From Klebsiella phage LPKP23, in sequence record PV112478.1: 64,000 bases of DNA. The stretch is one strand, 5' to 3'. A program made the translations under genes and the position numbers. The notes below the pieces were generated by a model, which saw nothing but the letters and a program-made list of their open reading frames with translations, was not told the origin of the DNA and did no database searches. Within the stretch, counting starts at the first letter, position 1. Each line of letters starts with the position of its first letter. Of the stretch, positions 25,280 through 27,430 are shown one piece after another.

Positions 25280-25588
25280 CTAGTACCAGTAATTACGGGA
25301 ATGAAACGATTCTCTTGCTACCGCTTCTCTTGTTTTCTGATAAACGAGACCTTCGAAGACAGCGCGCATGATCCAGAAAGCGACATGACTGATCAGGTAG
25401 CCTATTTTACTTAAGAAACAAGTCCAATCACGGAGTTTTCTTATCGAGCGACCTTTCCAGGAATTATCGTAAAGGACTTCTGGTGTTGCGCACTTTGCAG
25501 TTAACTTTTTGTTAGCGATGTAGGTTAAGAAAGTGATCATCGCCAGGACAGCAAAAGTAACAACAGAAATGAACAGATAGAATTCCAT
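25280..25588 (-). CDS. membrane protein, 102 aa, C-terminal NYWY
   Basis: N-terminal TM; C-terminus HSRNYWY. Confidence 0.45.
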   Translation of the reverse strand: MEFYLFISVVTFAVLAMITFLTYIANKKLTAKCATPEVLYDNSWKGRSIRKLRDWTCFLSKIGYLISHVAFWIMRAVFEGLVYQKTREAVARESFHSRNYWY

Positions 25589-25608
25589 GGAGTAGTCCTC
25601 GGTTTGCC

Positions 25609-25917
25609 TTAAAGTGGTTGGTAGTCAGCATCATCAAATTTGTCGTGCCACGTGCGGCGGTTCTTGCCGGACACGCGATGGCGGTTACGATGACGTTTGT
25701 GTTTTTCTTTTTGTCTTTCCGTTGGTTCACCGTAGAAAAGAACATCGTTAACAGCAGGTTCTTCGTTAACAATTTCTTCGGTAGCACAAACTGCTTCGGT
25801 CGTTACCTCTTCGGCAACGACGTCGGCGTCAACTTTACCGCGGTAGAATATGGTAAAAAATGCACTACAGAGTAAACCAATGACAACAAGAATAGCAAAA
25901 ATGATTAAAAGAGTCAT
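25609..25917 (-). CDS. membrane protein, 102 aa, basic His/Arg-rich segment
   Basis: N-terminal TM then KHKRHRNRHR. Confidence 0.45.
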   Translation of the reverse strand: MTLLIIFAILVVIGLLCSAFFTIFYRGKVDADVVAEEVTTEAVCATEEIVNEEPAVNDVLFYGEPTERQKEKHKRHRNRHRVSGKNRRTWHDKFDDADYQPL

Positions 25918-25989
25918 GGTTATATCTCCTTATTTTTAGCGAACAAAGTTTTTAAAAATAACTACGAACTCAATGACGACAATTTTTAC

Positions 25990-26262
25990 TTAGTACCAAT
26001 AGTTATTAATTTCCAGCTCTACTTCAATTACGTATTTAAAAACCAACGCGGAAACAGGCACGAAGATAAAGAGGATTGCGTAATATGGTACAAACGCGCA
26101 GCCCAACAGAGCAGAGATACCGACCAAGCAAGAGAAGATGTAACAACCTTTAATGATCTCATTTCGTTTTTCGATACCGAATAACTTATTACGATCAACG
26201 GCAACAGCAATGATAATCGCTATCGCTGCTAATAAGCCCATTACGATAGTAAAGATTAACAT
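25990..26262 (-). CDS. membrane protein, 90 aa (3 TM), C-terminal NYWY
   Basis: hydrophobic; C-terminus EINNYWY. Confidence 0.45.
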   Translation of the reverse strand: MLIFTIVMGLLAAIAIIIAVAVDRNKLFGIEKRNEIIKGCYIFSCLVGISALLGCAFVPYYAILFIFVPVSALVFKYVIEVELEINNYWY

Positions 26263-26598
26263 ATTTTTTTTCCTTTTACTTTAAGAGTAGACTTAGACGT
26301 GAGAGAGTTGTTTGCGTTATAAGAGTCGCATACGGCGATGTCCAGAACCAGACGGCGAAGCCTGTCAATTGTTCTGCAACTACCGAACCAGTAAGAGGGT
26401 TTACTGCTATTGTCCCTGAACTCTGATCTTTCCTCGATTTCGGAAGAGTCAGTAGGTACAACGCCACAGCCTCGATTACAGGTGTCGGGTGGGTAACGAG
26501 AAATATCGTCTTATAACGGTTTGAGAGTGTGAGAATTTAATTTAGCTTATCGTAAGGCGTTTCCTTCTTATCTCGTGTGCCAAGGGTGAGGTGACGAC

Positions 26599-26886
26599 TT
26601 AAGCGGTTACCGCTGCGTCAGAGACGTCGGTCTCGCCTGCGTCAGTCGCAGTCTCGCCGTCAGTGGCAGGAGAAATGACGGTTTTGAGGTTGTTGTAGCT
26701 ATCGTGAATATAGCTGAAGATAACCAAGACCGCAAAAGCGTAGGCCGCCACTTCCATGGCAGTGGCCATGCAGAACGCGGCGAAGATTGCCAGCGCGGCA
26801 ACGATCAGGGTGTCGGTGATGAAAGCAAAGATTGCTTTGGTTTTCTCAGTGAAAGAGAAAGAGAAGAACGCTTTGATTTTTTCCAT
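26599..26886 (-). CDS. membrane protein, 95 aa with acidic Thr/Asp-rich tail
   Basis: ORF track. Confidence 0.45.
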   Translation of the reverse strand: MEKIKAFFSFSFTEKTKAIFAFITDTLIVAALAIFAAFCMATAMEVAAYAFAVLVIFSYIHDSYNNLKTVISPATDGETATDAGETDVSDAAVTA

Positions 26887-26966
26887 GATAATTTACCTTT
26901 TGAATTGAATAATTTAACTACGGGCGAGAGTGCACTACTCACGCTGTTGAGAGGCAGCGCTTACTA

Positions 26967-27430
26967 CTATTTGACCGCTTTTAAGTAACTCCCTACGGCG
27001 ACGGCGAAAACGCAGGCCGGGAGTAAAGCCAGGTCAAGAATAAGTACCGAGGAAATAATCCCCAGTACCACGAAAGACGTTTTCATTACAACGCCTCCGG
27101 TGAATGAGTTGCGTTGAAATTGGCTTTGTTAAACTGCTCTTCTGAAAGCGCTCCAATAACTCCCGCGGCGAACGCTACCAGAACTGCTGGGATGATAGTC
27201 AGTTCAAAGAAGGTGCAGATCAGCAGAGTGAGAATTAACGTGATGAAGTAAGACATGATGATTTCTCCCTCTTAGGATAAATAGGTAACGGAGACTAACA
27301 GTGCGAACGGCGAAACGATATACCAGACGAGCACGGAGACGAATCCGTAAAGGATGGCCATCGGTAACGAGACACCGAAACAAAGCATCGCAACGAGAGC
27401 GACAATTAATAAAAGTATACTTTCTTTCAT
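26967..27430 (-). other. three tandem tiny hydrophobic ORFs (~39, ~56, ~53 aa) each with RBS; not in ORF track (<60 aa)
   Basis: manual translation: MKTSFVVLGIISSVLILDLALLP..., MSYFITLILTLLICTFFELTIIPAVLVAFAAGVIG..., MKESILLLIVALVAMLCFGVSLPMAILYGFVSVLVWYIVSPFALLVSVTYLS. Confidence 0.35.

Follow-up and report, generated by a model that had tools for sequence, protein, structure and literature searches.

Several described systems can be set beside the locus reported here, a cluster of seven small hydrophobic open reading frames (ORF1 to ORF7) at positions 25280-27430 of a 64,000-nt stretch of DNA from Klebsiella phage LPKP23 (PV112478.1); the whole of this stretch was analysed and is called the window. 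In superinfection exclusion by phage T4, Imm is a membrane protein of 83 amino acids (aa) and Sp is periplasmic. The products of the cluster resemble Imm and Sp in being small, of the inner membrane or periplasm, accessory and non-structural, and probably early. The setting adds to the likeness: the genes sit among nucleotide-metabolism genes, and a secreted protein of 156 aa adjoins the membrane proteins here. However, none of the seven shows sequence or profile similarity to the T4 proteins, seven genes stand against one or two, and the phage family is different. A match to the spackle family of PHROGs was obtained for the neighbouring 156-aa protein only (signal peptide at residues 1-30; E = 0.044).

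Holin systems such as S105/S107 of lambda and T, RI and RIII of T4 likewise comprise small proteins with one to three transmembrane (TM) segments and charged tails, and class I holins have three helices in an N-out/C-in orientation. Regulators of the MgrB/AcrZ/KdpF class share with the smallest cluster members a length of 39-56 aa, a single helix or hairpin and conserved polar or charged residues within the membrane span, but there is no homology, and the cluster is phage-encoded and arranged as a tandem operon. Concerning protein ends, signals for periplasmic PDZ proteases are relevant: the Y-x-F ending of outer-membrane proteins activates DegS and the WVF ending of MucE activates AlgW. Compared with all these systems, the locus is best explained, in our view and with somewhat better than even confidence, as a lineage-specific, conserved operon of seven orphan inner-membrane proteins that are probably expressed early, and in which the C-terminal NYWY of ORF1 and ORF3 is not a common tag.

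A conserved cluster of seven small membrane-protein genes

Nine records of Klebsiella jumbo phages (about 300 kb each), among them KpLz-2_45, the reference member of the genus Siatvirus, matched the 2.7 kb around the cluster at 96-99% identity. The closest match to the window was vB_kp_MJ359 (MJ359; 98.7% identity, genome of 300.8 kb), whose annotation lists a nuclear shell protein (chimallin), the tubulin PhuZ and numerous split beta subunits of RNA polymerase. Phage phiKp24 (vB_KpM_FBKp24) of the sister genus Maaswegvirus is reported to encode a nucleus shell protein and a tubulin (PMC8386662). Based on the MJ359 annotation and this description of phiKp24, the phage is nucleus-forming and phiKZ-like; the window belongs to a Siatvirus, a nucleus-forming (Chimalliviridae-type) Klebsiella jumbo phage. 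The block containing the cluster is syntenic in phiKp24 and Centimanus. Its genes are as follows.

27272-27430, minus strand: ORF7, 52 aa
27086-27256, minus strand: ORF6, 56 aa
26967-27086, minus strand: ORF5, 39 aa
26599-26886, minus strand: ORF4, 95 aa
25990-26262, minus strand: ORF3, 90 aa
25609-25917, minus strand: ORF2, 102 aa
25280-25588, minus strand: ORF1, 102 aa

The original prediction of seven hydrophobic ORFs of 39-102 aa, three of them below the cutoff of the ORF track, was borne out. All seven were present on the minus strand at the predicted positions, each with an ATG start, a Shine-Dalgarno-like sequence and at least one strongly hydrophobic window of 19 residues, and three of them, ORF5, ORF6 and ORF7, were shorter than 60 aa. 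TM helices were predicted in all seven proteins, with tails that are acidic in ORF3 and ORF4, mixed in ORF1 and ORF2 and nearly absent in ORF5 and ORF7. The MJ359 record annotates every one of the genes as encoding a hypothetical protein, and in KpLz-2_45 only the annotation of ORF5 is missing.

When Siatvirus sequences were compared, synonymous differences exceeded non-synonymous ones wherever changes were numerous enough, and the ratio of non-synonymous to synonymous differences (pN/pS) was below 1 (0.35 for ORF1, 0.1-0.17 for ORF3, 0.43 for ORF6 against KpLz-2_45 and KpYy_2_45, and 0.14-0.33 for ORF7). Judged from these substitution patterns, all seven genes are under purifying selection. 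Positional orthologues with 24-48% identity were found in Maaswegvirus (phiKp24, Centimanus) for all genes except ORF3; identities of the Siatvirus proteins to those of phiKp24 were 48% for ORF7 (gp275), 46% for ORF6 (gp276), 37% for ORF5, 34% for ORF4 (gp278), 24% for ORF2 (gp281) and 37% for ORF1. Selection, synteny and positional orthologues together mark a genuine and conserved cluster of small membrane proteins.

Outside the two genera no relatives were detected. A tblastn search of 50,697 phage records with ORF1, ORF3, ORF4, ORF6 and ORF7 confined them to 12 records of Siatvirus and Maaswegvirus, a word-indexed search of 5.8 billion proteins with ORF1, ORF3 and an ORF7 profile gave none beyond the two genera, and scans of IMG/VR and JGI metagenomes with an ORF1 profile gave the same result. 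An exhaustive HMMER search of 1.84 billion representatives with ORF1 returned two 50%-identity clusters only. In Pfam, PHROGs, NCBIfam and PADLOC no family was matched by any of the seven, hits being limited to sub-threshold noise, and literature searches on Siatvirus, Maaswegvirus, DUF7338 and YfjT yielded no relevant functional data.

ORF7, which is confined to the two genera, has two hydrophobic helices with the invariant core FGVSxPMAIxYGxVSVxxWYxxSPF. ORF6 consists of a single long hydrophobic stretch, in which E18 and P23 are invariant, and of a polar tail; ORF5 is hydrophobic with invariant D18 and P23, and its start codon and the stop codon of ORF6 have 1 nt in common. An in-register motif, [LF]-[DE]18-L-[AT]-x-x-P23-A, is common to ORF5 (LDLALLPAC) and ORF6 (FELTIIPAV), and its acidic residue and proline are invariant across the genera. 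With a weak profile signal (hhalign P = 0.0098; shuffle z = 3.0), this is suggestive only, and the two genes may be tandem paralogues. Paralogy of either with ORF7 was unsupported.

In ORF4 a basic, amphipathic N-terminus precedes a hydrophobic core of two helices, in which D25 and E45 are conserved, and the tail is acidic; the protein is 100% conserved in all nine Siatvirus records. Against KpLz-2_45 and KpYy_2_45, 0-1 of 288 nt differed in ORF4 whereas 23 of 171 nt (13%) differed in ORF6, and the position of a diverged ORF6 beside a near-identical ORF4 therefore points to a recent recombination mosaic within the operon. At the other end, ORF2 is a single-pass protein with an N-terminal TM segment followed by an acidic stretch, a stretch rich in Arg, Lys and His (KEKHKRHRNRHRVSGKNRR) and an acidic end, a layout kept in the phiKp24 protein despite the low identity. 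Tethered to the membrane, the ORF2 tail may bind nucleic acids or lipids.

The NYWY ending of ORF1 and ORF3

ORF1 and ORF3 both end in N-Y-W-Y-stop and, as had been noticed originally, are otherwise dissimilar. BLASTP gave no alignment between them at E ≤ 100, so no paralogy is seen, and the codons of the tetrapeptide differ (AAT TAC TGG TAC in ORF1, AAC TAT TGG TAC in ORF3). From the amino acid composition of the genome, a proteome is expected to contain about 0.11 NYWY; the probability of a common C-terminal tetrapeptide in any pair out of seven proteins was 2.5e-4, and for gene pairs up to three genes apart genome-wide it was 0.015. Because of this rarity and these pair probabilities the match is unlikely to have arisen by chance, a calculation made for a match that was noticed post hoc. 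Three other, unlinked MJ359 gene pairs with identical C-terminal tetrapeptides were found. Two large tail or virion proteins encoded at MJ359 223648-226059 and 229768-231837 have YETA in common, possibly by paralogy; this pair shows that common termini arise elsewhere in the genome.

The ending had been proposed to be a common sorting, interaction or degradation tag, a proposal for which a search for further carriers is informative. No other NYWY, terminal or internal, occurred in six-frame ORFs of at least 30 aa in the window or in the whole MJ359 genome, and none of the 2527 six-frame ORFs of MJ359 had another YWY within six residues of its C-terminus; YWY occurred three times in total in these ORFs. 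The tetrapeptide thus does not recur on other members of the proteome.

The histories of the two tails are also different. ORF1 is predicted to form a helical hairpin with helices at 2-33 and 44-100 (AlphaFold2; predicted local distance difference test score (pLDDT) 79.8, below 50 in the tail), with an invariant loop, DNSWKGRxxRxLRDWT, and invariant K61 and R75 in helix 2. A fold search of viral structures with this model returned only the phiKp24 orthologue and generic helical hairpins. The YWY was invariant in all 21 ORF1-family sequences listed, from isolates and metagenomes of both genera (15 from Siatvirus, 14 of them distinct as one was listed twice, and six distinct ones from Maaswegvirus), although an indel of 12 residues lies directly before it. 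N, S or R stands in front of YWY. In the Maaswegvirus proteins two extra residues follow it (RRYWYYA), which makes the motif internal. Because these proteins continue past YWY, the conserved feature is R-x-YWY near the end of helix 2 and not a free NYWY C-terminus. On the periplasmic side, R-x-YWY likely serves as an anchor at the membrane interface or as a contact site.

ORF3, with three predicted helices (AlphaFold2, pLDDT 66) and the end ..VELEINNYWY, is the variable member of the cluster. It was present in four of the 12 related phage records and lacking in five Siatvirus isolates and in Maaswegvirus. The origin of its tail became apparent from a DNA alignment with metagenomic relatives (L015-L017), in which ORF3 has 85 aa, ends in ..VIEEGWKN and overlaps with its stop the ATG of a 128-aa gene, followed by a 98-aa gene for a protein with three TM segments, ORF2 and ORF1. 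The corresponding segment of the window is:

25966-26010, minus strand: frameshifted ORF3 tail and decayed start of the lost 128-aa gene

The haplotype of the window is without the 128-aa and 98-aa genes, and codon 84 of ORF3 is the site of a 1-nt indel relative to the long haplotype, to which homology stops near 26010 and restarts inside ORF2. The ORF3 frame passes over the old stop into the decayed opening codons of the lost gene, whose ATG has become ATA, and reaches a stop six codons on. The series runs from TAATGGCTATTGACGCTAAG in the long haplotype (old stop, new ATG, codons 2-6) over TAATAACTATTGGTGCTAAG in KpYy_2_45 and KpLz-2_45, read as ..NNYWC*, to TAATAACTATTGGTACTAAG in the window and MJ359, read as ..NNYWY*. 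By outgroup comparison, C is older and Y arose later by a G-to-A change. All 22 metagenomic contigs with the exact allele of the window had the same short arrangement; NYWY was the commonest ORF3 ending in metagenomes (22 contigs), and EEGWKN was found on about nine contigs. Given the indel and the read-through into the lost gene, the NYWY of ORF3 is a recent by-product of cassette turnover. Gene conversion from the 3' end of ORF1 into ORF3 was considered as another source, but the stretch in common is only the 8-mer TGGTACTA, too short to decide.

The tail lies in a hot spot of cassette exchange at 25830-26262, between ORF4 and the body of ORF2, where comparison with relatives L004, L003 and L015-L017 revealed at least four haplotypes:

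ORF3 (90 aa) alone
ORF3 (85 aa), a 128-aa protein (or a frameshifted one of 105 aa) and a 98-aa protein
a 95-aa and a 199-aa protein
a 104-aa and a 186-aa protein

The third was found at the position of ORF3 in the five Siatvirus isolates that lack it, its 95-aa protein having three TM segments, and the fourth, an unrelated pair, in Maaswegvirus (phiKp24, Centimanus). In other haplotypes the N-terminal TM segment of ORF2 was exchanged together with the cassette. The similarity of ORF3 to the 95-aa and 104-aa proteins with three TM segments was weak (z about 3-3.6), and since ORF3 and proteins of this 95-104-aa type coexist in some haplotypes they are not alleles.

The two tails are also predicted to lie on different sides of the membrane. 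By the positive-inside rule, basic loops are cytoplasmic. The N-termini of ORF1 and ORF3 are one or two residues long and contain no Lys or Arg, while the first loops contain eight such residues in ORF1 and five in ORF3. By this rule both proteins would be N-out, which predicts the ORF1 tail in the periplasm and the ORF3 tail in the cytoplasm. Opposite sides, if correct, argue against one reader for both tails.

It remains to be weighed whether NYWY, or YWY, is a true short linear motif for docking, sorting or stability with one partner, the ORF3 tail having been fixed because it recreated the ORF1 motif; a periplasmic PDZ protease (DegS, DegP, Prc) or another protein of the cluster would be candidate partners. 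In line with this, the only two NYWY of the 300-kb genome are both C-terminal and in genes about 400 bp apart, the ORF1 motif persisted in both genera next to the 12-residue indel, and the change from NYWC to NYWY, the commonest ORF3 ending in metagenomes, goes towards the motif. As in the signals of DegS and AlgW, an aromatic-x-aromatic tripeptide stands at the extreme C-terminus, on the predicted periplasmic side in the case of ORF1. But the end residue is Y, or C in some ORF3 alleles, instead of F, and recognition of a free carboxylate of the PDZ type does not fit the Maaswegvirus proteins, where the motif continues with YA; the ORF3 tail, moreover, is predicted to be cytoplasmic. NYWC is still found in two isolates and EEGWKN in metagenomes, five isolates do without ORF3, which Maaswegvirus lacks altogether, the topologies predicted for the two proteins are opposite, and no third protein among the MJ359 six-frame ORFs carries the motif. 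We thus regard such a motif as unlikely. With the ORF3 tail young and variable and the ORF1 motif internal in Maaswegvirus, the proposal of a shared tag is poorly supported, and the common ending appears to be largely an evolutionary accident.

Promoter, spacer and neighbouring genes

Directly upstream of ORF7 lies a repeated module, as had been predicted for this side of the cluster.

27440-27515, minus strand: promoter/5' untranslated region (5'UTR) module, directly 5' of ORF7, with repeat copies elsewhere

The copy at the cluster, about 75 nt long and running from 27515 to 27440, consists of a run of seven T, ATGTATATATTGC, a small hairpin GGAAAGG..CTTTTCC and TAACTAAACCAATAAGAGG with a ribosome-binding site. 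The form found across the repeats (about 75-90 nt) comprises T7-N-ATGTATATATTGC, a GGAAAG..CTTTCC hairpin and TAACTAAACC with a ribosome-binding site. In the window, copies were located at 27458, 30383 and 49684, all on the minus strand, with weaker relatives at 5015 and 59682; in MJ359, about eight further matches leading operons were found genome-wide with up to five mismatches. Early promoters of the virion RNA polymerase in phiKZ-like phages have an AT-rich block of about 10 nt near -10 with a T-rich stretch upstream, while late promoters contain TATG only (PMC7598289, PMC8244752). By analogy, the module probably represents the early virion-RNA-polymerase promoter class of this phage, and early expression of the cluster is inferred because its architecture matches that of the phiKZ-like early promoters.

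The two halves of the cluster are separated by a spacer.

26263-26598, minus strand: conserved non-coding spacer of 336 nt with DNA homology to phiKp24 and a covarying stem

No spacer ORF conserved in Maaswegvirus (phiKp24) was found. The spacer DNA is homologous to that of phiKp24 (score 50 versus 10.6 +/- 3.6 in shuffles, z about 11), and its conservation between the genera equals that of coding DNA. A 9-bp stem, formed by 26380-26371 with 26348-26340, was 100% paired; in four pairs both partners differed between the genera, and no pair was broken, while slid controls gave zero. One G-U pair in the stem favours the sense (minus) strand, and 3' of the stem follows an invariant small hairpin at 26338-26326, UCGC-CGUAU-GCGA. 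The element is unique in the genome by sequence, and Rfam gave no match inside the cluster. The folding energy of the whole spacer was unremarkable compared with shuffled sequence (z = -0.13), covariation being limited to the one local stem. Coming from two deep lineages only, these data are suggestive of a structured spacer RNA, which may be a processing, attenuation or 5'UTR element that splits the operon.

Regarding the ends of the transcription unit, the cluster had been placed between two terminators. The nearest terminator-like sites on the minus strand, 28153-28122 and 24456-24437, do flank the cluster, but they enclose in addition a divergent 189-aa gene and two co-oriented downstream genes:

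24460-25211, minus strand: a gene for a secreted 156-aa protein (signal peptide, PHROG 3429, YfjT-like) and a gene for an acidic 55-aa protein

The transcription unit probably takes in these two genes as well. The site at 28122-28153 is a strong, near-perfect palindromic hairpin with A- and T-run flanks (AAAAAAGAGAGGGCGTTTGCCCTCTCTTTTTT) and could be a bidirectional terminator between the converging 189-aa (plus strand) and 139-aa (minus strand) genes; weak Rfam hits to small RNAs at 28065-28198 correspond to this hairpin.

In a crude hydrophobicity scan, all 11 consecutive genes at 24741-29133 were found to encode a signal peptide or TM segment, whereas elsewhere in the window this applied to about 15 of about 95 gene-like ORFs. 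Besides the seven ORFs, this run comprises the genes for two secreted proteins (the YfjT-like one of 156 aa and one of 164 aa), for a multi-TM protein of 139 aa and for the DUF7338 protein of 189 aa, which is divergently encoded. One gene further upstream, at 29176-29580, a protein of 134 aa is encoded which looks secreted by eye but was under the threshold of the scan.

Possible role of the cluster

According to the explanation given at the outset, transcription would start at the repeated early-type module just upstream of ORF7 and proceed through ORF7, ORF6, ORF5 and ORF4, the structured spacer and ORF3, ORF2 and ORF1 to the two further genes. The products would enter the cytoplasmic membrane of the host soon after infection, where the envelope would be remodelled or guarded by superinfection exclusion, by modulation of host membrane machinery or by protection of the infected cell. 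The conserved buried charges, of which those of ORF1 are basic and those of ORF4, ORF5 and ORF6 acidic, may hint at mutual assembly. ORF1 would contribute an old aromatic patch, R-x-YWY, beside helix 2, while NYW(C/Y) in ORF3 would have been gained recently by cassette replacement and the 1-nt indel over the remnant of a lost gene, followed by the change from C to Y.

The ends of the cluster are conserved (ORF7 to ORF4; the ORF2 C-terminus and ORF1), whereas its centre turns over fast (ORF3, the 95-104-aa proteins with three TM segments and the proteins of 128, 186 and 199 aa). Such a combination would be typical of accessory genes engaged in conflict at the cell surface, such as the exclusion of competing phages, or in manipulation of host membrane proteins. 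From this context, early modification of the envelope or exclusion seems the most likely single role, with lysis less likely, though we put it forward as a tentative assignment only.

The genes and the selection on them, their synteny, the history of the tails, the conservation of the motif and the repetition of the promoter are well supported, whereas timing, topology and physiological role are inferred. Several points weigh against this explanation and the role attached to it. Exclusion or envelope remodelling is the default guess from the genomic context, and in the literature no expression, localisation or phenotype data were found for the cluster genes of any phage. Promoter class and timing are assigned by analogy with phiKZ, and the topology is predicted from the positive-inside rule and from AlphaFold models built on very shallow alignments, with the low pLDDT of ORF3 noted above. 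Finally, five substitutions within 20 nt of a decaying gene start yielded exactly NYWY; such an exact match is improbable, and with this allele the commonest one in metagenomes, selection for the motif is possible.

In the original prediction the cluster was likened to holin/antiholin modules, and it could, in whole or in part, form a lysis-timing apparatus, with ORF3 or its 95-104-aa counterparts with three TM segments as main candidates. The small size of the proteins, their one to three TM segments, the charged tails of several of them, and the three helices of ORF3 in a predicted N-out/C-in orientation, as in class I holins, agree with this, and no holin is annotated anywhere in the MJ359 genome. 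Nevertheless, the promoter module is early-type and not the late TATG motif (PMC7598289), and none of the seven proteins matched holin families of PHROGs, Pfam or NCBIfam. No endolysin gene is adjacent to the cluster, its neighbours encoding hypothetical envelope proteins, and the annotated Rz-like spanin gene (MJ359 151176-151775) is about 135 kb away. Furthermore, fewer than half of the isolates have ORF3, and seven genes far exceed the needs of any known holin system. A function as holins therefore appears improbable.

A further alternative joins all seven proteins in one early hetero-oligomeric inner-membrane complex, a channel or scaffold. Charge pairs would then form between K61 and R75 of ORF1 and D25 and E45 of ORF4, D18 of ORF5 and E18 of ORF6. 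R-x-YWY of ORF1 would be a contact site, and the ORF3 tail a linear motif that arose de novo when a frameshift let translation enter the start of the dead gene and that was kept, under selection, for recreating that contact; the covarying spacer hairpin would determine the stoichiometry of the two operon halves. A tie to membrane events around the early infection vesicle of the chimallivirus lifestyle is conceivable. We regard such a complex as very doubtful. Least of all, the region could be mainly regulatory or non-coding RNA with some of the smallest ORFs (39-56 aa) untranslated; although three ORFs are under the usual length for gene calling, ORF5 is unannotated in KpLz-2_45 and a conserved structured element lies in mid-cluster, this is highly improbable given frames, lengths and motifs kept at 37-48% aa identity with invariant Pro, Asp, Glu, Trp and Tyr, the excess of synonymous over non-synonymous changes, and strong ribosome-binding sites with an ORF6/ORF5 overlap that suggests translational coupling.

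The genes of the cluster were already deposited as hypothetical proteins and, as a cluster of early phage genes for small membrane proteins, are of a familiar kind. New are the covarying hairpin, the origin of the ORF3 tail by frameshift, and the conservation of the R-x-YWY patch and of the buried charges. The finding is modest, since the genes had been deposited before and NYWY is mostly explained by descent and accident. The ORF3 tail nevertheless provides a clean small example of a new C-terminus made from a wrecked neighbour gene. Nucleus-forming jumbo phages are intensively studied and those of Klebsiella are candidates for therapy, while their early effects on the envelope are almost uncharted. 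For this group the cluster offers orphan membrane proteins in a compact and conserved set that lends itself to experiments, behind an apparently strong early promoter, and, if exclusion or takeover of the envelope is true, it would be relevant to the design of phage cocktails.

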